Source of the DNA: a virus
Taxonomy: Duplodnaviria > Heunggongvirae > Uroviricota > Caudoviricetes
IMG/VR virus record: IMGVR_UViG_3300020048_006428
Location: 1 to 64,000 of that record
DNA: 64,000 nt
Reading direction: 5' to 3' (one strand)
The notes beneath the pieces were generated by a model. That model saw nothing but the letters and a program-made list of their open reading frames with translations, ran no database searches and was not told the DNA's origin. Below, piece after piece: positions 16,221-45,108 of this stretch. The position numbers and the translations under genes were made by a program. Position 1 is the first letter of the stretch; the number at the start of each line of letters is the position of its first letter.

Positions 16221-16310
16221 TACCCAAGGTGAGATTCGAACTCACAACGTTTTCCGCTAGGGTATTGGGTTCTTAAGCCAATGCGTTTCAACCAGTTTCG
16301 CCACTTAGGT
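16221..16310 (-). tRNA. tRNA-Leu (AAG by canonical register; TAA if loop is shifted)
   Basis: acctaag/cttgggt acceptor, GCG/CGC D stem, ttggc-TTAAGAA-cccaa anticodon arm with C31xC39, long variable arm, GTTCGAATC. Confidence 0.8.
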
Positions 16311-16642
16311 ATAAAATATTATCAATTAAATAATTTCTGTATTCTTGTTTAAAATCTATAATATTATATTCATTCCAATCACTATAATGCAAATAATCAT
16401 CAGATTTTCTTGTATAAAATTGGAATTCATTATCAATTCTTATTAATGCAATATTTTGATTATCTGATAAATAACGTGAAAAATGTTCAACAGAACGGCC
16501 TTGAACAAATGAACCTTTTGAAAATGTAATATTTTGTTTTAAACTTAAAGACAAAAAATTTTTTAAAGCTGTATTATCACCACAAAAAAAGCTGTATTTT
16601 TATTGTTTATAATTTCAATTATATTCATATTAAATTTTTTTG

Positions 16643-16713
16643 ATCCCCCAAGCAGATTTGAACTGCTATCTATATCTTACCAAGATATCATTCTACCATT
16701 GAAATATAAGGGC
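16643..16713 (-). tRNA. tRNA-Thr(GGT)
   Basis: atatc-TTGGTAA-gatat anticodon arm, agcag-TTCAAAT-ctgct T arm; G1xA72. Confidence 0.85.
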
Positions 16714-16720
16714 ATAAATT

Positions 16721-16795
16721 TGGAACGCACAGTGGGGCATGATCCCACGTTTCCGGTTTTGCAGACCGGTGCCTAAACCACTCGACCATATGCGC
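16721..16795 (-). tRNA. tRNA-Cys(GCA), CCA encoded
   Basis: ccggt-CTGCAAA-accgg; U73; atypical T-loop ATCATGC. Confidence 0.85.
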
Positions 16796-16804
16796 GTATT
16801 GTTG

Positions 16805-16878
16805 TTGGATTAATTGGATTTGAACCAATGACATCTTCGGTATCAGCGAAGTACTCTAACCAACTGAGCTATAATCCA
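16805..16878 (-). tRNA. tRNA-Ile(GAT)
   Basis: TAGCTCAGTTGGTTAGAG D arm, cttcg-CTGATAC-cgaag. Confidence 0.9.
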
Positions 16879-16889
16879 TTATAATTAAG

Positions 16890-16963
16890 AGGTTCAGGTC
16901 GGATTTGAACCGACGATCTCTTGAATGTAAATCAAGTACCTTAGACCACTTGGCGACTGAACC
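16890..16963 (-). tRNA. tRNA-Val(TAC)
   Basis: ggttcag/ctgaacc acceptor, cttga-TTTACAT-tcaag, GTTCAAATC. Confidence 0.85.
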
Positions 16964-16974
16964 TTATATTTTTG

Positions 16975-17047
16975 TAGAACAGATAGGATTTGAACCTACA
17001 ACCTTCCGATTCGTATTCGGAGACTTTTCCAATTAAGTTACTGTTCC
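16975..17047 (-). tRNA. tRNA-Arg(ACG)
   Basis: tccga-ATACGAA-tcgga, GTTCAAATC. Confidence 0.85.
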
Positions 17048-17052
17048 ATTTT

Positions 17053-17128
17053 TGGATCCCACAGACAGCAACGATCTGTCAACCCCAGTTTACAAGACTG
17101 GTATTTTGCCAATTTAAACTATGTGGGC
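17053..17128 (-). tRNA. tRNA-Thr(TGT), CCA encoded
   Basis: ccagt-CTTGTAA-actgg; G1xA72; atypical T-loop ATCGTTG. Confidence 0.85.
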
Positions 17129-17160
17129 ATATATGGCTACTAAAAAAGTAGCCTTTTTAA

Positions 17161-17433
17161 TTATTTATTTTGACTTTCAATGTATGAATATGGCGATCCA
17201 TCAACATAAACTATGTTCTTGAAACCATTTGCTTCTGTTATTATTGATTCTTGTTCTGTTACACCAGCTCTATATTTTTCACCATAATTTCCTTCTATCT
17301 TACCTGTTGCTGGATTAACATCGCCCCAAACTTCACCTTTATACTTTTCATTTGGTATGATTGGTTCTACACAATAAACTTTACCTGTTTTTAGATTCGT
17401 CACAAAATGACGACCATAACCACCTTCTTTCAT
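17161..17433 (-). CDS. Hypothetical protein inside tRNA array
   Basis: 90 aa ORF with WGDVNPATGK motif. Confidence 0.65.
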   Translation of the reverse strand: MKEGGYGRHFVTNLKTGKVYCVEPIIPNEKYKGEVWGDVNPATGKIEGNYGEKYRAGVTEQESIITEANGFKNIVYVDGSPYSYIESQNK

Positions 17434-17455
17434 AATAATAAATTTAATTTTTTAG

Positions 17456-17544
17456 TAGAGTAGACAAGACTCGAACTTGCAGCGTTGTAATAAATAACAC
17501 TTAATCCCAAATTAAGGCGGCTTCCATTTACCGGTTACTACTCT
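17456..17544 (-). tRNA. tRNA-Pro(TGG) with enlarged variable region
   Basis: agagtag/ctactct acceptor, cttaa-TTTGGGA-ttaag, GTTCGAGTC, about 19-nt variable region. Confidence 0.8.
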
Positions 17545-17552
17545 ATATTTTG

Positions 17553-17635
17553 TTGGTGCAGTGGGATTTGAACCCACATTTATCAACTTACCAATTACAG
17601 TTCTCCATCTTATCAGGATGGGCTGGTATGCACCA
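17553..17635 (-). tRNA. Non-canonical D-armless tRNA-Ile(GAT)-like RNA
   Basis: tggtgca/tgcacca acceptor, 7-nt linker instead of D arm, ccatc-CTGATAA-gatgg, 27-nt variable region, gtggg-TTCAAAT-cccac. Confidence 0.7.
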
Positions 17636-17646
17636 TTATAAACCTA

Positions 17647-18465
17647 CTACTCTATATTTTTGTTTTTAATCCATTTTCTAACTGCATTATCACTTACTCC
17701 ATATTTTTTACCAGTTGCAACATAACCATACTCTTCAATTTCTTTCAATAATTCTTCTACAGAAGGTCGAATTACTTTTCTAAAGTCTATTCTATTACAA
17801 ATTATACACTTTTTAGAATTTTTATTTATTTCACTTCCACAAACACAAAAATTAGATATTTTTTTCTTATTTTTTCCTACGTGTGTGTCTAATCCAGCAT
17901 TGCAATTAGGACAAACAATTCTTAAATTTTCTAATCTGTTGTCATCATAAATACCATTTATGTGATCTATTATCAATGAAATCTTCATTCCGTTCCATTC
18001 TTCTCCTTGTCCACATAGTTTACACTTTCTTTCTAATATACCATCATCATATAATCTTTTTTTAAGATGTGTTCTACTATATGTAGAATTTTGTACTAAA
18101 ATTTCATCAAGTGATTTCTTTTCCTTTAGTAAATTTCTTTTTGCTACTTCTTTTGCTGATTCAAAATGTTCTATTGATATATTATAAATATCAATATATT
18201 TTTTTAAAATTTTATAATTACCACCAGCTGCCCTTAATCCCATTTTAACTAAAGATTCTTTATATGATGATGATTCTGATATAATTTTACTTAAAAATTC
18301 CTTTTCATATATTCCCCTATTTTTAACATAGGATATATTTAACATATTTGCCTTTTTCCTTATTGCGTAAATTTTTCTATCAAGAAAATCAGAACAATAT
18401 TTAGCTCCTTTGTTATAATTTTCTATTAAGAAATCAATTTCTTTTTCTGTCCATTTTTTACTCAT
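17647..18465 (-). CDS. HNH homing endonuclease inserted in tRNA array
   Basis: CKLC...IDHING...NRLENLRIVCPNCN; C-terminal HTH (KYGVSDNAVRKW). Confidence 0.85.
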   Translation of the reverse strand: MSKKWTEKEIDFLIENYNKGAKYCSDFLDRKIYAIRKKANMLNISYVKNRGIYEKEFLSKIISESSSYKESLVKMGLRAAGGNYKILKKYIDIYNISIEHFESAKEVAKRNLLKEKKSLDEILVQNSTYSRTHLKKRLYDDGILERKCKLCGQGEEWNGMKISLIIDHINGIYDDNRLENLRIVCPNCNAGLDTHVGKNKKKISNFCVCGSEINKNSKKCIICNRIDFRKVIRPSVEELLKEIEEYGYVATGKKYGVSDNAVRKWIKNKNIE

Positions 18466-18552
18466 AAAATAAATCTAATTTTTAATTATATATATAAAAT
18501 ATATCAATTTCCATTTAGACTTTTATATAAATTTCAACTTAGACTTTATTTG

Positions 18553-18625
18553 TTATCACGGAAGGACTTGAACCTTCAAAATCCATATTCAAAGTATGGT
18601 GACTTTACCATTCGTCTACGTGACA
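18553..18625 (-). tRNA. tRNA-Gln(TTG)
   Basis: tgtcacg/cgtgata acceptor, ccata-CTTTGAA-tatgg. Confidence 0.9.
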
Positions 18626-34836: not shown

Positions 34837-35604
34837 ATGAAATACTTAAAACTTTTTGAAAACTTTAGTATGTCACATATACGTGAAATATGTGAATATT
34901 ATGATATTACAGACTATTCAATAAATCCTGATGGTTCTATTGATGTAATTGGTAATGTTAATTTTTCAAATGGTAGACTAACTGAAATACCAATAAAATT
35001 TAATAAAGTAGATGGTAATTTTAATTTTTCAAATAATAGATTAACTACTTTGGAAGGTTGTCCAAAAGAAGTTAGTGGCTATTTTAACGTTTTTAAAAAT
35101 AGCTTAACTACTTTAGAAGGTTGTCCAAAATACATTGGAAGTCATTTTTCGTGTAATCATAATAATTTAACATCCTTAGAAAATGGACCAAAATTTGTTG
35201 GTGAAACTTTTAATTGTTCAAATAACAATATTAAAAGTTTAAAAGGATTTGAAACTATTTTAAATGGATCTTTTGTTATTTCTAATAATAACTTAGAAAG
35301 CCTTGTTGATTGTCCAAATATAAGAGGTTCTCTTCATATACAAGAAAATAAACTAACTACGTTAGAAGGACTTCCAGAAGTTCATAAAGGTATACTTTGT
35401 TTTGGAAATCCAATATATGAAATATTTTCTTTGTTTTATAATGATATTAAGATTTATTTAGATTATCAAGAAACATATAATTTTGTTAGAAAGGATTGTA
35501 GAGTAGTTAAATATTTATTAGAAGAAGTTATAAAAGATTATAATGAATATTATAATAAATCAGTAGAATTACCAAAAAAAATTATAGGATATACTTATAT
35601 ATGA
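34837..35604 (+). CDS. Leucine-rich repeat protein (LTTLEGCP repeats) with leader
   Basis: Repeats N.LTTLEGCPK.V.G.F. Confidence 0.8.
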   Translation: MKYLKLFENFSMSHIREICEYYDITDYSINPDGSIDVIGNVNFSNGRLTEIPIKFNKVDGNFNFSNNRLTTLEGCPKEVSGYFNVFKNSLTTLEGCPKYIGSHFSCNHNNLTSLENGPKFVGETFNCSNNNIKSLKGFETILNGSFVISNNNLESLVDCPNIRGSLHIQENKLTTLEGLPEVHKGILCFGNPIYEIFSLFYNDIKIYLDYQETYNFVRKDCRVVKYLLEEVIKDYNEYYNKSVELPKKIIGYTYI

Positions 35605-36134
35605 AATACTTAAAACTTTTTGAAAACTTCAATCTAAATGAAGATATTATAAAAATAGCTAATCTAATAAATGGTTTAGATTTAGATTTGGCTATAATAC
35701 TAAGCGAAACGCAAAATATTAATATGGATTATGTCATAGACTATTTGATAAGTCTTGTTTTAATACCTGATAGTAAATATCAAGAATTTTGTGATTTTTT
35801 AGAAGAAATTACATATGCAGATGATGCAAAAACTTTATATGAAGCTAAAGTTTATAATTTAGATATAGAAATAACCGCAATTAGAGAATCATATGAAGAT
35901 GATTCATTGGACTTTGATGATGAAGATGATTCATTGGACTTTGATGCAGAAGACTTTTGTATTGAAATAAGAATTAGTTCACCCGAAATATATTATGAAA
36001 CTCTATTATATCCAAGAAATATTTCTACTGGTGTTAAAGATATAATATCTTTATTTAATGAAGTAGTAACTGATATTATTTCACAAACTATGAATGAAAT
36101 CATTGAAAAAAGAAAAGAATCCTTAGAATATTAA
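35601..36134 (+). CDS. Hypothetical acidic protein with MKYLKLFENF leader
   Basis: ORF; internal EDDSLDFD duplication. Confidence 0.65.
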   Translation: MKYLKLFENFNLNEDIIKIANLINGLDLDLAIILSETQNINMDYVIDYLISLVLIPDSKYQEFCDFLEEITYADDAKTLYEAKVYNLDIEITAIRESYEDDSLDFDDEDDSLDFDAEDFCIEIRISSPEIYYETLLYPRNISTGVKDIISLFNEVVTDIISQTMNEIIEKRKESLEY

Positions 36135-36149
36135 TCTAAGGATTCTTTT

Positions 36150-37103
36150 TTATTTAGTTAAAAACCATTCAACACTATTAAGACATTCTAAATCTTTTCC
36201 GCCACCATATGAAATAGAACTCTGTAAACATTCTTCTAAATAAACCAATTCTTCTAAAATTGTTTTATCTTTTAATTCTATTAAATTTCTTTCACCTTCA
36301 ATCCTATTCTTTTTACCGGATTGAAATGCAGAAGCACTGCCCCAATATTCTTTGTATTTTTTACCATCAGAAGCATTTATTACACAACCAGGGGAATCTT
36401 TAAACCCAGATAACATACCACCAACCATAACCATTGAAGCACCTAAAACAATAGATTTTGAAATATCACCTGGTTCTCTTATTCCACCATCTGCTATTAT
36501 TGGCAATTTAGAAGCAATTGCACATTCATATATTGTTGCTGCTTGGCAATTTCTACTACCATATCCAGTTGCCGGATAAGTCGTACAAGAAAATCCTGGA
36601 GCCACACCAACTTTCAGGGCATCTGCTCCCCAATTTGTAAGGTCTTCAACTGCTTCAACTGTTGATATATTACCTGCTATTTTGAATGTATTTGGTAATT
36701 TATCATTTAGATAAGCCAACATCTTTTCCATTTTTATAGAATGTCCGTGAGCAATATCAATAGTTACATAGTCAAGATTAAGATTATTTAATAAAATATC
36801 ATCAATTAATTGATAAGAATCTTCATTTACTCCAATTGATATAGATGATATTAGATTAAGACTATTCATTTTTTTAATAAATTGTAGTTGATCTACATCA
36901 AATCTATGTAATATATAGAAATAACCATTTTTTGCTAATTCAATAGCTAATTCTTCGTTTATAACACATTCCATATTAGCAGGGATGACTGGGATATTAA
37001 ATATGTGTTTTCCAAATTTAGTAGATGTGTTGCATTCTGAACGAGATTCAACAATACATTTTTTTGGTTTTAGATTTATGGTATTAAAATCAAATTTTTT
37101 CAT
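36150..37103 (-). CDS. guaC: GMP reductase
   Basis: PANM, IDIAHGHS, KVGVAPG..CTT, IIADGGIR..GDI.K, EYWGSAS. Confidence 0.9.
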   Translation of the reverse strand: MKKFDFNTINLKPKKCIVESRSECNTSTKFGKHIFNIPVIPANMECVINEELAIELAKNGYFYILHRFDVDQLQFIKKMNSLNLISSISIGVNEDSYQLIDDILLNNLNLDYVTIDIAHGHSIKMEKMLAYLNDKLPNTFKIAGNISTVEAVEDLTNWGADALKVGVAPGFSCTTYPATGYGSRNCQAATIYECAIASKLPIIADGGIREPGDISKSIVLGASMVMVGGMLSGFKDSPGCVINASDGKKYKEYWGSASAFQSGKKNRIEGERNLIELKDKTILEELVYLEECLQSSISYGGGKDLECLNSVEWFLTK

Positions 37104-37778: not shown

Positions 37779-38726
37779 ATGAATTACAACAGATTAGTAT
37801 CAAAAATTGAACAAATTACAAATGAAGTTTATTTTTTAAATGAATCATTGGATATGTATGATAGACGTTCTCTTATTATGGGATTTGAAGATGGTATGAA
37901 TGAGGAAAGATCTTGGGCTGAATGGGCAGGTGGTGGTGTAGCTTGGCTACAAAAGAAAGCCGCAAATGTTGTTGGTCAAGTTAAACAAGGCTTGAACTAT
38001 GCTATTGAAAAGGGAAACGAATATTATGAAAGGGGGAAAGAATTAGCTGGTGAAGCTTGGGATTCCATAAAAAAATTTAGTGCTGATGTTTTAAATGGAT
38101 TAACAACCGCATATAAAAGTGCATTAGATACAATACAATCTGGATATAACAAATTTATATCTATGATGTCAAATGCATATACAACTGCATCAGAAGCCAT
38201 TAAATCAGCTTATAATAAACTTAAAGAAAAGGGTGAAGCATTTGTTAATGCATGTAAATCTATTTATCAAAAAGTTATTGAAAATAGCATTTTGGCATAC
38301 CAAGCAACAAAAGAAAAATTTATATCTATGGGTAATGGGTTCACAAAATGGATTAATAATAATGCTGATAGTATAAAAAAACAAGCAGAAGAAGCTAAAA
38401 CATCAACTGTTGCTGGTATTTCTAAATTAGGTGAAATGGTAAGTAATGCTATGACAAAAACTGGCGAGTTTGTAAGTAATGCTATGACAAAAACTGGCGA
38501 AGTTGCTAGTAAAGTAGCAATGATTGCCCTTTTTGTTATTGTTTGGCCAATAAAAACACTTATAAATGGTATAAAATCTATTCCATTAGTATATGATAGT
38601 GCAGTTGATGCTGTTTCTAAATTTGTGGAATCAACTATTAGTGATTTTAAGAAAGGACATACTGATGAAATGGGTAAGAACGAATCTTTAAAATATATTA
38701 TATCTTTTAATAACTTTAACAACTAA
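37779..38726 (+). CDS. Amphipathic-helix-repeat (apolipoprotein-like) membrane protein
   Basis: 11/22-residue helical periodicity, TM IALFVIVWPI, VSNAMTKTGE duplication, C-terminal NESLKYIISFNNF. Confidence 0.6.
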   Translation: MNYNRLVSKIEQITNEVYFLNESLDMYDRRSLIMGFEDGMNEERSWAEWAGGGVAWLQKKAANVVGQVKQGLNYAIEKGNEYYERGKELAGEAWDSIKKFSADVLNGLTTAYKSALDTIQSGYNKFISMMSNAYTTASEAIKSAYNKLKEKGEAFVNACKSIYQKVIENSILAYQATKEKFISMGNGFTKWINNNADSIKKQAEEAKTSTVAGISKLGEMVSNAMTKTGEFVSNAMTKTGEVASKVAMIALFVIVWPIKTLINGIKSIPLVYDSAVDAVSKFVESTISDFKKGHTDEMGKNESLKYIISFNNFNN

Positions 38727-38741
38727 AAGAAAAATAACAAA

Positions 38742-38798
38742 TAACAACTAAAAGAAAAATAACCACTTTAAAAGTGGTTATTTTTCTTTTAGTTGTTA
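38742..38798. terminator. Long perfect hairpin, bidirectional terminator
   Basis: taacaactaaaagaaaaataaccacttt-a-aaagtggttatttttcttttagttgtta. Confidence 0.7.
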
Positions 38799-38813
38799 AA
38801 GTTTAAAAAAAAT

Positions 38814-38885
38814 GAAAACTCAGAGTAGCGAATTCTGAGTTTTCTATAGACACCTGTGTTTCGGTGTAACTATAATGGTCCTAAG
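38814..38885 (-). ncRNA. Putative small RNA complementary to 23S rRNA H69-H71
   Basis: 19/20 match to GTAACTATAACGGTCCTAAG plus GTAGCGAA in a hairpin loop; two hairpins. Confidence 0.5.
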
Positions 38886-38890
38886 CCATT

Positions 38891-39190
38891 TTAATCTTTA
38901 TTTGGTATCCAAAGTTCTTTATCATCTTTATTTGGCATCCAAGTAATATCTTTTTGATATTCTTTTATCAAATTTTTAATCTTATCCTTTTTCCAAAATT
39001 GCCACCATTTTTTATTGGTTATTTTTCCAACTGGTATTATATAAACTATAATATAATTATTTAATTCCGTGAAATCTACTTTTGTTAAGTTATCATTTTC
39101 TATTTTATATAGAAATCCATCTATTATTCTAAAGACCTTATTATCTAATTCATCATAGTATATATTGTCAATACATTTTAATTTTTCCAT
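38891..39190 (-). CDS. Small protein with portal-like C-terminal segment
   Basis: YIIPVG...LIKEYQKDI...KELWIPNKD; KKWWQFW. Confidence 0.5.
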   Translation of the reverse strand: MEKLKCIDNIYYDELDNKVFRIIDGFLYKIENDNLTKVDFTELNNYIIVYIIPVGKITNKKWWQFWKKDKIKNLIKEYQKDITWMPNKDDKELWIPNKD

Positions 39191-39219: not shown

Positions 39220-40074
39220 TTATTTTAAAAAATAATTATATTTTTCATATGTCATTATTATAGAACTTAAATTCATTATTACTTTCTTACTTTCTAATTT
39301 ATTTAGTTTATTATCATTTATTTTATTTACAATTAAAGCTGGTCTATATTCTTCAATATCTTCTTTAATTACATCCCTTAATCCATTTTCTGTTTTTGAA
39401 ACCATTACTTCCAAAATAGAATTTAATTCATCAATTACTTTTAATGTATCAAAATCATTATTGTAATAACTTATTTGATCATATCTTGTTATTTCTTCGT
39501 TTATAAATTTATCACCTTGTGATTTATAGCCAACTAAATGCTGAATTAATAATCTTATCTTTTTAAATCTTGTTTGATCTATATCTTGTGCATATAATGT
39601 TTCATTTATATAATAAAAATTTTTAATTAAAATACCATCTTCTTTTAATTTTTCTTTTAATTTTTCGATTATGGTTTCATAATTTCTTTTTGTTTGTTTT
39701 GAACATATAATATAAATATCTTCAACTTTATTTTTTAAGTCTAAAATTGTATTAAGATTTAATTCAAAATCCATTTCATCAATTATACTTTTATTGTAAA
39801 ATTCTTGTAATGATATAGCCAAATTACCAAAGTTAGCTTTATATGTTTTAGCTTTAATTTTAATTTTATTATATAAATCTGTTGGTAGCCAAAATGTCCT
39901 ACCATTAAACTCCATTTTATTATTTTGTTTTCTATAAATTCCATTTTCAATTAAATTGAAATCCGATTTGGATATTTTCATAATAGGTATAGTTGGATTG
40001 TCTTTATCAACAATCCAAGCCTTATTATTAATTTCTATTAAAGAATCTATATCAAAGAAATGTGCTTTATTCAT
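39220..40074 (-). CDS. Hypothetical protein, possible HAD-like fold
   Basis: HFFDIDSL at N-terminus; late motif upstream. Confidence 0.5.
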   Translation of the reverse strand: MNKAHFFDIDSLIEINNKAWIVDKDNPTIPIMKISKSDFNLIENGIYRKQNNKMEFNGRTFWLPTDLYNKIKIKAKTYKANFGNLAISLQEFYNKSIIDEMDFELNLNTILDLKNKVEDIYIICSKQTKRNYETIIEKLKEKLKEDGILIKNFYYINETLYAQDIDQTRFKKIRLLIQHLVGYKSQGDKFINEEITRYDQISYYNNDFDTLKVIDELNSILEVMVSKTENGLRDVIKEDIEEYRPALIVNKINDNKLNKLESKKVIMNLSSIIMTYEKYNYFLK

Positions 40075-40122: not shown

Positions 40123-40986
40123 TTATTTTATATCTGAAACTTTTGCGATTATTTCACTTTTTTTCTTTTTAATATCAGCTTTTCCATCATCAGTTTTTCC
40201 AAAACCATATTCATCACCATTTATTTCTTCAATAGACTTAACTGCTACTGTTTCGCTATCATCTTTTTTATCTTTAGCTATCTTTCTTTTTTCATCATCA
40301 CTTAGTTTATTCCAATCATCTTTAGTCTTATCTTTTCTAAGATAAATAACTTCATCCCCCACTTCATATTTAACTTCTTTCTTAGTAGTTAATACATTGT
40401 TTAATTTTGCTTGTAATTGTTTATTTGCTGTATCTCTTGCCTTAATAACTTGTGGTAATACAGATTTATCACCAGCATCTTCTAATGCCTTAATTTTTGC
40501 GTTTAAAACATCTAAATTAAATTGATCCTTTTTAGTATCTATTAATAATTTTAATTGTGGATTTTTTTCTTCACCGCCAAATTTAACTAATATTCTATCA
40601 AAATCTTTCATTGCCATTTTAAAATAAGTGTCTATTATTTGATCTATTAATTTCTTCTTTTCTTTTAATGTTTCCGCATCAATTTTAGTATCCCCATCTT
40701 CAATCTCATCAGCTTCAACTATTAAAGACTCTTTTAATGAAGATGATGCAAAAAGATTTAATTCTATATTAGCTTTCTTTTTAATTTCTTCTGCTATTTT
40801 CTTTTTCCATTCATTATATTTATTTTCTAATTCTTTAGCACCTTTTATACCAGCTAATTTAGACCACATATTTTTAAAAAACTTTCCGATTCCAAATATT
40901 TCTTCATTCATTGGCTCATAAGTGCGAGATTTGCACTTCCTTTCAGAAAAATATTTGAAATTTTCAAATGTTCTTATATATTTCAT
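40123..40986 (-). CDS. Putative internal virion protein with MKYIRTFENF leader
   Basis: Leader, MNEE and LIVE sites, late motif upstream. Confidence 0.6.
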   Translation of the reverse strand: MKYIRTFENFKYFSERKCKSRTYEPMNEEIFGIGKFFKNMWSKLAGIKGAKELENKYNEWKKKIAEEIKKKANIELNLFASSSLKESLIVEADEIEDGDTKIDAETLKEKKKLIDQIIDTYFKMAMKDFDRILVKFGGEEKNPQLKLLIDTKKDQFNLDVLNAKIKALEDAGDKSVLPQVIKARDTANKQLQAKLNNVLTTKKEVKYEVGDEVIYLRKDKTKDDWNKLSDDEKRKIAKDKKDDSETVAVKSIEEINGDEYGFGKTDDGKADIKKKKSEIIAKVSDIK

Positions 40987-42435: not shown

Positions 42436-45108
42436 ATGAAATATATAAAAAGTATAAGTGAGTTCAAATCATATAACGAATCAAATATAAGAAAAGTTCC
42501 ATATAGTAGGGAAATAAAAGTTTATGAAAATGCATTTGAAAATGATATTACTTGGGGTGGGTCTTTATTAGGTAGATTAATAAATTCCACAATTAGATAT
42601 AGCACAGCACAATATAAATCAACAAAAATAAAAGGAATAGTTGCTAAAGTTCAAACATGTTTGGATACATTAGTTGCTAATGTTGCGTTAGATGAAGATA
42701 GTAACAATTCTATTGATAAATTAAAAGTTAAAATGCTTTTAAAAGAAATATATGCTGTTGTTTCAAGTGATTCTGAATTGGATGAAAAATTAACAACATT
42801 ATTGGGTGATAAGACACAAGGGTCAGGTCTTATAGATACAACTATATCATACATAGAAAGTATTGATATTGATAAAAAAGATATATTGATAAAGAAGTTA
42901 GAAGATTTTAAGAAAGCCTTGATGGATATAGACTATAATATAAAAGATGATGATGAAGATGATGAAGATACCAATGATGTTGACCAATCTAATCCAGAAT
43001 TTAAGTTTTTCACTACAAATATAAATCTATTTAAATCAATAATAGGTCTTAATAATGTAATTAAAAATAGAAGAATAAAAATAGAAGGTGAACAAGATAT
43101 TGATAGTGGATATACAACTGCTGACACTTCTGTTGATGATTTTAATGCTTATAATAGAAACCAAAGAAATATTAATAAGAATAAAAAAGTTGATAATAAA
43201 CAGACAACTACAACTAAACCAATTACAACAACCCAAACAAAGAAGCCACCATTTAAGATAACATCAATTGGTAGTAAGGAAGAAGTGGAAGAAGTCAAAG
43301 CTAATGAAAATGTTGAAACCCTAAGAAGTAAAGAAAAACATGCAATAGCTGCTTGGAAAAAAATAATTAAGATATGTAAAGATATTAAAATTGATGATTT
43401 ATCAAAGAAATTAGAAGAAATTATAAATCAAAGTAAATCAGGTGAAAAATTAAATAAAACTGTAGTAATTGCTATTGGTAAGAATATAATATTAAATGAA
43501 GCAACAACTGGTAAACCAATCGGTTATCAAGAATTAATAAAAGAAGAAATGGGTAATATCCCTTCACAATATTCTGATTTACCAAAAAGAATTTCATTTT
43601 TATCTAAAATTTTATTATCATTCAAAGATGATATGGGTTTAATTGGATCACTTGGGGAAGCTATTCAACATATTAAAAATTATATAAAATCATATAACGA
43701 ATTAAAAAATATCTACCCTAAACTTTCTAATAAAAAGTTAGAAAAATTTAATGATTTTAATTTTAAGAAGAATTTAGAAAAATTTAATGATTTTAATTTT
43801 TTAAATGAAAAATTTGATATAAATGATGATTCAACCTATGATAAAGTTCAAGTGGCTTGGTTTAAATTTTTTAATAAAGGTGAAGAAAATTCTTGGAAAT
43901 TAACCAATGAAGATTCTGAATTGAGAGATAAAGTGGAAAATATAGGTGATAAAGAAATACCATTTGATTCCGAATCACATGTAGATAAAATAATGGAAAT
44001 AGTTAATCTATTTGGAAAAGCATATCGATTATATGCTAATAGTAGTATTCCATCTGGTAGACCTGGTGGTAGAGTATCACAAAAAACTTTTAGAGCATAT
44101 ATTTATATTGGAGAACTATCTAGTGGTAGAGGTGGTGATTGGGAAAATGGTGTTGCAAGTGGTGGACCATGGGCATATAAGATAACATTTGAAAAATGGG
44201 AAGATGGTATTACTAAAATATTAGAAGATCCAAAATATAGAAAAGTATTAGCAAACATCAAATTTAAAAATACTGGACCTAATCAAGATCAAGGTTCTGG
44301 TGTTACTGGTAAAGATGGTGGTTATGGTAGTGATGGTGGATCACCAAACAGAAAAATTGTATCCGGTAGATCATTATTTGACTTCATAAATGAAATGATA
44401 AATCCAGAAGGTGGTTTTGCTAAATCAAGACAAAAAATAATGAAAGAATATTTTGGTGGGGTTGATAAACTTACATCAGCAGAAGAAGAAGCAAGAAAAA
44501 AAGAAGAAAGAGAAAGTAAAGAAAATTTACAAGAACCAAAAACTAAAGAAGTTGGTGATAAAAAAGTAATATCATTTGTTAGTGCTGATCGAAATGGATT
44601 ATATAAAGTAGATAATATATCTAAACTAATTGGTAATTTTATTAAAATTAAATATAAAGATAATCATATTATAGCATATGTGATTGGGAAAAAAGAAATT
44701 AATAAAATTGAACATTTGTTAATTAAATTTAATTTTTCTAGTTCCGGTGAAAAACAAAATTTAATATCTAAATATCTATCTAATGATTTAAAAGACAAAT
44801 ATAAAATAACTGAAGAAAGTAAAATAATCGAGGAAAACACTCCATTATATTTTGGTGTTATTCCAGTTTCACAAAAAATATTAAAAAATAAAGATTTGAA
44901 ATTTAAATATGGTAAAGTAACCAATAATAATTTAATAAGTGAGATAAAACTGTTAGATATTAAAAAAATAGAAGAAATTACATTTTTAGCACATTGTCCA
45001 GACCAAGATAAAGTAATATGGAAATTAGTTGAAGTTAAAACCCCACAAAGTAGACTACAATATGACATATCAGATATAGATAAAATAGACTTAACAAAAT
45101 TAATATGA
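42436..45108 (+). CDS. Large putative internal virion protein
   Basis: 890 aa; leader MKYIKSISEFKSYNES; duplicated internal LEKFNDFNF..NE. Confidence 0.6.
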   Translation: MKYIKSISEFKSYNESNIRKVPYSREIKVYENAFENDITWGGSLLGRLINSTIRYSTAQYKSTKIKGIVAKVQTCLDTLVANVALDEDSNNSIDKLKVKMLLKEIYAVVSSDSELDEKLTTLLGDKTQGSGLIDTTISYIESIDIDKKDILIKKLEDFKKALMDIDYNIKDDDEDDEDTNDVDQSNPEFKFFTTNINLFKSIIGLNNVIKNRRIKIEGEQDIDSGYTTADTSVDDFNAYNRNQRNINKNKKVDNKQTTTTKPITTTQTKKPPFKITSIGSKEEVEEVKANENVETLRSKEKHAIAAWKKIIKICKDIKIDDLSKKLEEIINQSKSGEKLNKTVVIAIGKNIILNEATTGKPIGYQELIKEEMGNIPSQYSDLPKRISFLSKILLSFKDDMGLIGSLGEAIQHIKNYIKSYNELKNIYPKLSNKKLEKFNDFNFKKNLEKFNDFNFLNEKFDINDDSTYDKVQVAWFKFFNKGEENSWKLTNEDSELRDKVENIGDKEIPFDSESHVDKIMEIVNLFGKAYRLYANSSIPSGRPGGRVSQKTFRAYIYIGELSSGRGGDWENGVASGGPWAYKITFEKWEDGITKILEDPKYRKVLANIKFKNTGPNQDQGSGVTGKDGGYGSDGGSPNRKIVSGRSLFDFINEMINPEGGFAKSRQKIMKEYFGGVDKLTSAEEEARKKEERESKENLQEPKTKEVGDKKVISFVSADRNGLYKVDNISKLIGNFIKIKYKDNHIIAYVIGKKEINKIEHLLIKFNFSSSGEKQNLISKYLSNDLKDKYKITEESKIIEENTPLYFGVIPVSQKILKNKDLKFKYGKVTNNNLISEIKLLDIKKIEEITFLAHCPDQDKVIWKLVEVKTPQSRLQYDISDIDKIDLTKLI

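Follow-up and report, generated by a model that had tools for sequence, protein, structure and literature searches.

A folded phage RNA from the end of an operon that may pair with the helix 69 region of 23S rRNA

In a stretch of phage DNA of 64,000 nucleotides (here called the window, and part of a 276-kb virus record) a short intergenic element contains two pieces that read like bacterial 23S rRNA. By computational analysis alone, we asked what this element is, on which strand it acts and whether its likeness to rRNA matters. On the plus strand we find the 20-mer GTAACTATAATGGTCCTAAG at 38866-38885 and the 8-mer GTAGCGAA at 38825-38832, and a reference 23S gene (locus L222) carries the contiguous ...GCCGTAACTATAACGGTCCTAAGGTAGCGAAATTCC. 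The 20-mer is identical to 23S positions 1910-1929 in 19 of 20 bases, the sole difference being a T for C1920 at 38876, and the 8-mer is identical to 1930-1937 in all eight. The 1930-1937 piece lies upstream of the 1910-1929 piece, that is, the halves are swapped relative to 23S. A first-pass annotation, made from the letters alone, had described exactly this match, and it holds against the real 23S gene. The same annotation had assigned the match to helices 69 to 71; the loop and the 3' arm of helix 69 (H69) are indeed there, but in place of H71 we find the 1925-1937 linker and the 5' strand of H70. By chance, a 20-mer with three mismatches or fewer is expected 0.02 times per window. The element is present in one copy in the 276-kb record, and a search of that record for a 23S gene found none.

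The element sits between convergent genes, at the end of a run of minus-strand ORFs. The last gene of this run, a 99-aa ORF of unassigned function (38891-39190, minus strand), has no family in Pfam or PHROG. Its stop codon (38891-38893) is immediately followed by the RNA element, with 5 nt between stop and 20-mer. A related contig (L024, in which a neighbouring gene is 68% identical) has neither the ORF nor the element at the matching place, and we therefore regard the two as an accessory cassette. The convergent plus-strand gene at 37779-38726 is closed by a second, AT-rich hairpin of 20 bp (38747-38793), which serves it as a terminator, either as a back-up or in both directions; here Rfam gave weak sub-threshold matches to plastid 3'UTR hairpins only.

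The phage has a GC content of 19-29%. Elsewhere in the window there is a cluster of nine tRNA genes (16221-18625, minus strand; 35-71 bits with the Rfam tRNA model) and a gene of the IMPDH/GMP reductase family (36150-37103, minus strand; PF00478, E = 8e-56), an auxiliary gene of nucleotide metabolism. Three ORFs (34837-36134, plus; 40123-40986, minus; 42436-45108, plus) begin with the near-identical N-termini MKYLKLFENF, MKYIRTFENF and MKYIKSISEF, which suggests a paralogous family with a shared leader. A 284-aa protein (39220-40074, minus strand) belongs to a strongly conserved family: over 440 relatives share 54-70% identity with it, their contigs reach 629 kb, and D8 and D10 are invariant (a HAD-like DxD). 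We considered this neighbour as a possible RsfS and rejected the idea, as the Pfam match is sub-threshold (E = 0.008) and the structure model (pLDDT 84.8) has neither an RsfS-like nor another clear PDB fold.

Read as RNA from the minus strand, the element is predicted to fold into three hairpins. The block CUUAGGACCAUUAUAGUUAC (38866-38885) complements 23S 1910-1929 with one A·C mismatch, opposite C1920. In the predicted fold, a stem AAUGG/CCAUU (38886-38890 / 38874-38878; hairpin 38874-38890) closes the loop CUUAGGA (38879-38885), which complements U1923-G1929 and has a predicted unpaired probability of 0.76. The A at 38876 is unpaired with C1920, yet paired within the RNA's own stem, and this pairing explains the single departure from 23S; in 8 distinct relatives the place of this stem is occupied by ACCGG/CCGGU. 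The middle hairpin (38845-38874) consists of UAUAG/CUAUA (38870-38874 / 38845-38849) around ACACC/GGUGU (38863-38867 / 38850-38854), the latter being the hairpin that had been noticed earlier between the two matches, as ACACC/GGTGT at 38850-38854 / 38863-38867 of the plus strand. This hairpin masks AUAGUU, the complement of 23S 1912-1917 (predicted unpaired probability 0.25), while an alternative predicted fold provides an upstream GAUUA as the partner for the middle-hairpin strand. The same layout, UAUAGU...ACUAUA around an inner hairpin, is found in L608, L549, L554 and L579.

The third hairpin (38814-38844) has 11 bp, with arms that read GAAAACTCAGA / TCTGAGTTTTC in plus-strand letters (38814-38824 / 38834-38844), and a 9-nt loop AUUCGCUAC (38825-38833) that complements 23S G1930-A1937 and has a predicted unpaired probability of 0.97. 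Directly 3' of it there is an A followed by eight U (38805-38813), the putative end of the transcript. An 11-bp stem containing G and C and then A-U8 is what is expected of an intrinsic (Rho-independent) terminator; note that the terminator scanner skipped this hairpin because its loop has 9 nt and the limit is 8. Thus the 8-mer does lie in the loop of an 11-bp hairpin, and the element does lie just 3' of a minus-strand gene and end in a U-tailed hairpin, as had been proposed. Compared with shuffled sequences, the fold has a z of -4.8 on the minus strand and of -6.2 on the plus strand. We also calculated duplex energies on short 23S targets (on the whole 23S, duplexfold returned only long-loop duplexes). 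A 33-nt block that spans the 20-mer gives -33.6 kcal/mol with 23S 1904-1933, compared with -10.4 +/- 2.8 for shuffled queries; the terminator loop alone gives -14.5 with 23S, compared with -8.4 +/- 2.5, and is weak by itself.

Is the element found elsewhere? There are 16 viral contigs with the permuted pattern GTAGCGAA-N20-50-TAACTATAAYGGTCC and 64 with the 17-mer alone, compared with 19 for the reversed control of the 17-mer; all 19 control matches are coding-like and have no hairpins. When viral and metagenome matches are pooled (with the true 23S continuation excluded from the metagenome scan), they amount to 113 distinct contexts. A relaxed pattern built from the conserved bases, TTAGGACCGNNATAGTT, matches at least 120 viral contigs; among the matches listed there are 101 distinct contexts, and in 65 of these UCGCUAC follows within 60 nt. 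The blocks recur beside terminator hairpins in viral contigs of many unrelated phage lineages; homologs keeping both rRNA-matching segments do exist. The genes upstream differ: they include nrdA (the large subunit of ribonucleotide reductase, in T4-like marine phages), a virion structural gene, an Rz-like spanin, a Q-like antiterminator and genes of unassigned function. In all cases, the element points in the same direction as the gene before it, and a U-tract comes after it. One lineage holds both pieces contiguously, complementing 23S 1911-1941. In one sub-family there is no ORF end nearby and TATA-rich -10-like boxes (TATATAAT, TATATAAA and TATATAGT, in L528, L614, L532, L534, L585 and L608) are found 6-9 nt before the RNA 5' end; these members look like stand-alone sRNA genes.

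On the other hand, among 185,579 bacterial and archaeal species (one genome each) the 17-mer without the true 23S continuation gave only 10 matches, of which 7 are 23S genes with errors or introns and 3 are non-rRNA places. The latter are L212, L217 and L221 (two Myxococcota MAGs, one copy lying by a tRNA 3' end, and one Chitinophagales MAG), and may represent prophages or integrated elements. A relaxed genome pattern, TAGCGA...17-mer, matched true 23S genes only, since some taxa carry TAGCGA in H68. Judging from these scans, the RNA class is phage-specific and large. Both its size and its variation are lower bounds, partly biased to perfect matches, as the collections were scanned with exact patterns and records near the window's own genome were excluded; the exceptions to this bias are the two lineages anchored by protein (nrdA and virion structural gene).

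A search of Rfam 15 gave nothing on the element, neither with the gathering threshold on the window nor with E <= 1 on ten loci (the window and nine related ones). GenBank phages contain nothing related to the 1.8-kb region or to two members of the family, and no cultured phage among them has the element; with a 48-nt probe the matches were real 23S genes only, from records that are contaminated or are prophages (one of them, Paenibacillus phage Pd_22F, has a complete 23S and 5S). Literature searches also found no description of such an RNA. We conclude that the element matches no family already characterised in Rfam or in GenBank phages.

For the structural comparison, we gathered the nrdA lineage by its NrdA protein and not by the element, which gave 80 loci with 56 distinct downstream regions; 42 of the regions that carry the element form the alignment. 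In the nrdA sense the RNA consists of the stop codon, hairpin 1, YUUAGGA, hairpin 2 (CCG-NNN-UAGU-NNN-CGG), a spacer, the terminator with the loop UUCGCUACU and a U-tract. Hairpin 2 covaries, with one pair being UA in 15, AU in 13 and GU in 11 sequences and the next one GC in 27, UA in 12 and AU in 2, and hairpin 1 covaries likewise. The terminator behaves differently in its two parts: UCGCUACU is unchanged in the 42 sequences while 20 distinct terminator stems covary, and across these 20 stems there are 36 G·U pairs. Invariant or nearly so are UUAGGACCG (the complement of 1920-1928), A-UAGU-U (1912-1917), CGG and UCGCUACU (1929/30-1936). The positions opposite A1918, A1919 and U1911, in most members of the lineage, track the internal hairpin and not 23S; the exact 17-mer is therefore one variant of a covarying stem, and what the whole class keeps, in the alignments, is three segments whose complements lie next to one another in 23S. 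Predictions for 58 distinct elements give these three segments unpaired probabilities of 0.59, 0.57 and 0.76, compared with 0.38 elsewhere and 0.09 for the CC(G) stem bases.

R1, a covariance model trained on the nrdA lineage, matches the window at 38807-38900 on the minus strand over its full length, with 27.9 bits and E = 4.3e-5, where the search space was 243 kb, E-values are rough and the model is largely sequence-driven. In the window, the 1920-1929 block, which in the class reads YUUAGGACCG, is CUUAGGACCA (9/10), and its last base pairs within the RNA's own stem. Two bases past it comes the AUAGUU block, flanked as UU-AUAGUU-AC, so that the complement reaches G1910. The terminator has UUCGCUAC(U) in its loop and a U-tract after it, on the same strand as the upstream gene; loop and first stem base together read UCGCUACU, as in the nrdA lineage. 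The nrdA-type hairpin CCG-NNN-UAGU-NNN-CGG is not seen here, as the window has CCA without a CGG partner. Its fold follows a second sub-family (L554, L579, L608, L549 and others), in which a short stem surrounds YUUAGGA, UAUAG finds its partner in a CUAUA further downstream, sometimes with an inner hairpin between the two, and the terminator, with the loop AAUUCGCUAC, comes after an A-rich spacer. We considered the outer stem around YUUAGGA as a trait of the whole class and rejected this, since it is found in 24 of 69 elements where 15.7 are expected and is specific to one sub-family.

Which strand is the RNA? The G·U pairs of the minus strand would be A·C on the plus strand, and the gene orientation and the U-tracts agree with this; together they fix the RNA as the minus strand, the one antisense to 23S. 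In the T4-like lineage every neighbouring gene lies on the strand antisense to 23S. The annotation had expected an RNA antisense to H69 and bridge B2a, and the covariation and the minus-strand G·U pairs bear this out.

Next, we asked whether the differences between relatives and 23S are those that base pairing would allow. The lineage with the virion structural gene, again gathered by protein, comprises 80 loci and 50 distinct downstream regions. Within its 20-nt block we see A to G opposite U1923, U1917 and U1911 and C to U opposite G1922, G1921 and G1910. These six types of substitution keep the pairing with 23S by G·U wobble, and one type, U to C opposite A1919, disrupts it; one-base deletions are found in three haplotypes. 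Counting transitions only, 9 of the 20 sites could keep the pairing, which gives a probability of about 0.04 for six or more out of seven, and a far lower one if transversions are counted; the substitution types were read from the aligned list, as an automated count is confounded by the haplotypes with one-base deletions. The contiguous lineage differs from 23S at three positions (1930, 1939 and 1940), and all three differences keep a wobble pair on the RNA strand. The nrdA lineage varies in its 1920-1929 block only by A to G opposite U1923, and has C or U opposite G1929. Such a bias is strand-asymmetric, and would be expected if RNA pairs with RNA, but not from a DNA site or a sense mimic.

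The wobble-keeping substitutions in two lineages point to selection for RNA-RNA pairing, with the caveat that some of the variation covaries with internal masking partners, for example UAGGAUUG with CAAACCUA. L514, a divergent member of a lineage other than nrdA, keeps its own hairpin to the detriment of its complementarity to 23S. In two lineages there is a self-masked form, in which the block is paired with a nearby sense-like copy of 23S (AUAACGGACC or GUCCUAG) and the mask covaries (L034, L307, L280, L315, L286, L300 and L514; the L027/L028 lineage). We also looked at the 23S side of position 1920, where a U would pair with the A at 38876. The base is otherwise nearly universal, and a U is found only in 7 Chloroflexota species (the Caldilineaceae/Anaerolineales genes L506-L512); a Chloroflexota host is unlikely for a phage with such a low GC content, and we have rejected this explanation. 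Taken together, the comparison of lineages shows that selection acts on the class on the minus-equivalent strand in two ways, keeping its hairpins and keeping its complementarity to 23S. The earlier suggestion that the RNA pairs with 23S thus gains comparative support, from the wobble-keeping substitutions and from the recurrence in many phage lineages.

Our preferred explanation of the locus as a whole, an anti-23S RNA from the 3' end of an operon, would have a probability of roughly 60%, and there are several other ways to read the same data. Potentially, the element could be a cis-acting device of the 3'-UTR that captures a 50S subunit (the one released at the adjacent stop, or any), so that the mRNA 3' end is shielded from exonucleases or ribosomes are kept close for re-initiation, much as plant viruses use their 3' translation enhancers on 60S subunits. 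In most lineages the element begins 2-100 nt past the stop codon and shares the terminator of the mRNA (the distance is 5 nt in the window and 2-3 nt in the virion-gene lineage), and the evidence for 23S complementarity applies to this case just as well. However, the upstream genes are functionally unrelated, the sub-family with -10-like boxes and no adjacent ORF end looks stand-alone, and a 50S subunit bound at H69 cannot join the 30S, which would hinder re-initiation and not help it; we consider such a device improbable. Somewhat similar in its chances is a structured terminator or 3'-UTR RNA that binds a protein of phage or host, or only stabilises the transcript, with the likeness to 23S being an unused legacy of captured rDNA. 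The strong covarying internal structure and the positions that track the internal hairpin instead of 23S would fit such an RNA. What makes it a poor candidate is that the same 23S-complementary bases persist in unrelated lineages whose folds differ, that all of the ~26 conserved bases match a single stretch of 23S, that the conserved blocks are in predicted loops and that substitutions are biased toward those that keep G·U pairs relative to 23S.

Two further readings do not involve an antisense RNA at all. The matched stretch of 23S is the I-CeuI site and an intron hot spot, and the locus could be a relic or target of an rDNA-homing element at the level of DNA (the site of an I-CeuI-type endonuclease, intron or retroelement). 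There are 23S genes interrupted after about 1927-1929 at L213, L218, L258, L265 and L273, and one phage lineage has ~31 contiguous 23S bases. In the window, the contiguous ~26-bp site TAACTATAACGGTCCTAAGGTAGCGA is not found, as the halves are swapped, 33 nt apart and with one mismatch; in addition, the spacers are variable, the neighbouring ORFs have no endonuclease domain, and RNA-type covariation with G·U and strand-asymmetric substitutions cannot come from selection on duplex DNA. The identity with the I-CeuI site that had been pointed out does hold at the level of sequence and appears incidental. As a separate observation, intron-like insertions right after 1927-1929 occur in bacterial and metagenomic 23S at the five loci above and at L318 and L237. 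The annotation had also offered a plus-strand RNA that mimics H69 in the sense direction and acts as a decoy for H69-binding factors. The plus strand folds well (z -6.2) and has a promoter-like TAGACA-18-TATAAT at 38847-38876, 11/12 to consensus. But the 5' arm of H69 (1906-1910) is conserved in no lineage, and the arms 1906-1910 / 1920-1924 are neither kept nor covarying on the transcribed strand; the G·U pairs of the minus strand become A·C mismatches on the plus strand, the neighbour genes in the T4-like lineage are all antisense to 23S, and the terminator U-tract belongs to the minus strand. With 9 sites at 9/12 or better where 7.5 are expected, the promoter-like site may be a matter of chance in DNA of 25% GC; it owes its perfect -10 box to the T at 38876, where 23S has C, and transcription from it would run antisense to the 99-aa ORF. 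The readings as decoy, as homing-site relic and as chance are all disfavoured, and to the first two we give very little credence.

How would an anti-23S RNA from the operon's 3' end work? We suggest that the operon with the 99-aa ORF as its last gene has a transcript whose 3' end is the minus strand of 38805-38893, and that this RNA may be released from the operon mRNA. It would fold into the three hairpins, two loops showing CUUAGGA and AUUCGCUAC and a partly masked strand carrying AUAGUUAC, and the three segments would jointly complement 23S 1910-1937. The target would be the loop and 3' arm of H69, the linker and the 5' strand of H70, that is, the surface of bridges B2a/B2b; the stretch 1910-1937 makes B2a, and B2b in part, where the two subunits meet. 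In free 50S subunits, the H69 loop and the 1925-1932 linker are exposed, and 1920-1924 and 1933-1937 are base-paired. Full pairing with mature ribosomes would therefore require the opening of helices, and two routes are plausible: the loops make contact first, followed by duplex extension or strand invasion, or the RNA binds to nascent 23S that has not yet folded. The RNA would accordingly find its host 23S in free 50S subunits or in nascent pre-50S particles, and the swapped order of the blocks may reflect a folded RNA that reaches target segments neighbouring in space. Such an order is no obstacle to pairing, and one lineage has the contiguous order.

These parts of the explanation do not have the same weight. 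We think that the RNA probably pairs with 23S rRNA. That it occupies the H69 face of the 50S or pre-50S and hinders subunit joining or late assembly is a rather doubtful further step, and the blocking itself is a guess; the RNA would then be an anti-association or ribosome-silencing factor by which the phage modulates the host's pool of ribosomes. The general idea that many unrelated phages use a small folded RNA that docks by three loop or strand contacts on H69 and its neighbours at the interface of the host 50S, or on nascent 23S, and so controls subunit joining or assembly, is tentative, with a chance that falls somewhat short of even. A synthetic PNA against H69 is reported to stop translation and E. 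coli growth (Kulik et al. 2017, as cited in PMC12828698). H69 can therefore be reached, and an inhibitory effect is to be expected. The phage's own need for ribosomes speaks against a silencing of the 50S.

H69 is the most conserved functional helix of the large subunit. If the explanation is true, this would be the first known case of a natural RNA with bacterial rRNA as its target in trans. It would add a new layer to the phage takeover of translation, and with it a new mechanism of host control; phage takeover of host ribosomes is known to use proteins. It would also provide a natural proof that antisense oligomers can drug H69, and would account for the recurrence of the same 17-20 bases among phage genomes that are otherwise unrelated. 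Since the target is universal, the class is easy to test, and the transcript of any member can be used on E. coli ribosomes.

As far as we could find, rRNA as the target of a base-pairing RNA is unprecedented for bacteria and phages, and known systems share single features with the proposed one. Like sRNAs of the CpxQ/SroC type, the phage RNA is short, comes from the 3' end of an operon and shares the intrinsic terminator of the mRNA, and in both the conserved bases for pairing are found 5' of a Rho-independent terminator, with stand-alone genes among the relatives; unlike in these sRNAs, the proposed target is rRNA and not mRNA, and the terminator loop is itself part of the pairing surface. 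Complementary bases in hairpin loops and several contact segments are also known from OxyS-fhlA and CopA-CopT. OxyS and CopA, however, act on mRNAs or replication primers, whereas the three segments of the phage RNA are matched, in permuted order, to neighbouring parts of 23S domain IV. Base pairing with conserved segments of rRNA is the business of snoRNAs and archaeal guide sRNAs, but for the phage RNA no associated enzyme is evident, and to our knowledge bacteria and phages do not use rRNA guide RNAs. Plant-virus 3' translation enhancers bind 60S subunits, and have in common with RsfS and eIF6, which are anti-association factors, the proposed outcome of a large subunit whose interface is occupied. 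These two factors are proteins, though, and the plant-virus elements are tRNA-shaped and not antisense like the phage RNA. Closest in its target is the synthetic anti-H69 PNA (Kulik et al. 2017, as cited in PMC12828698), for which no natural counterpart is described in the searchable literature: as that citation presents it, it is directed at the same helix, and it is man-made, short and unstructured, unlike the folded phage RNA.
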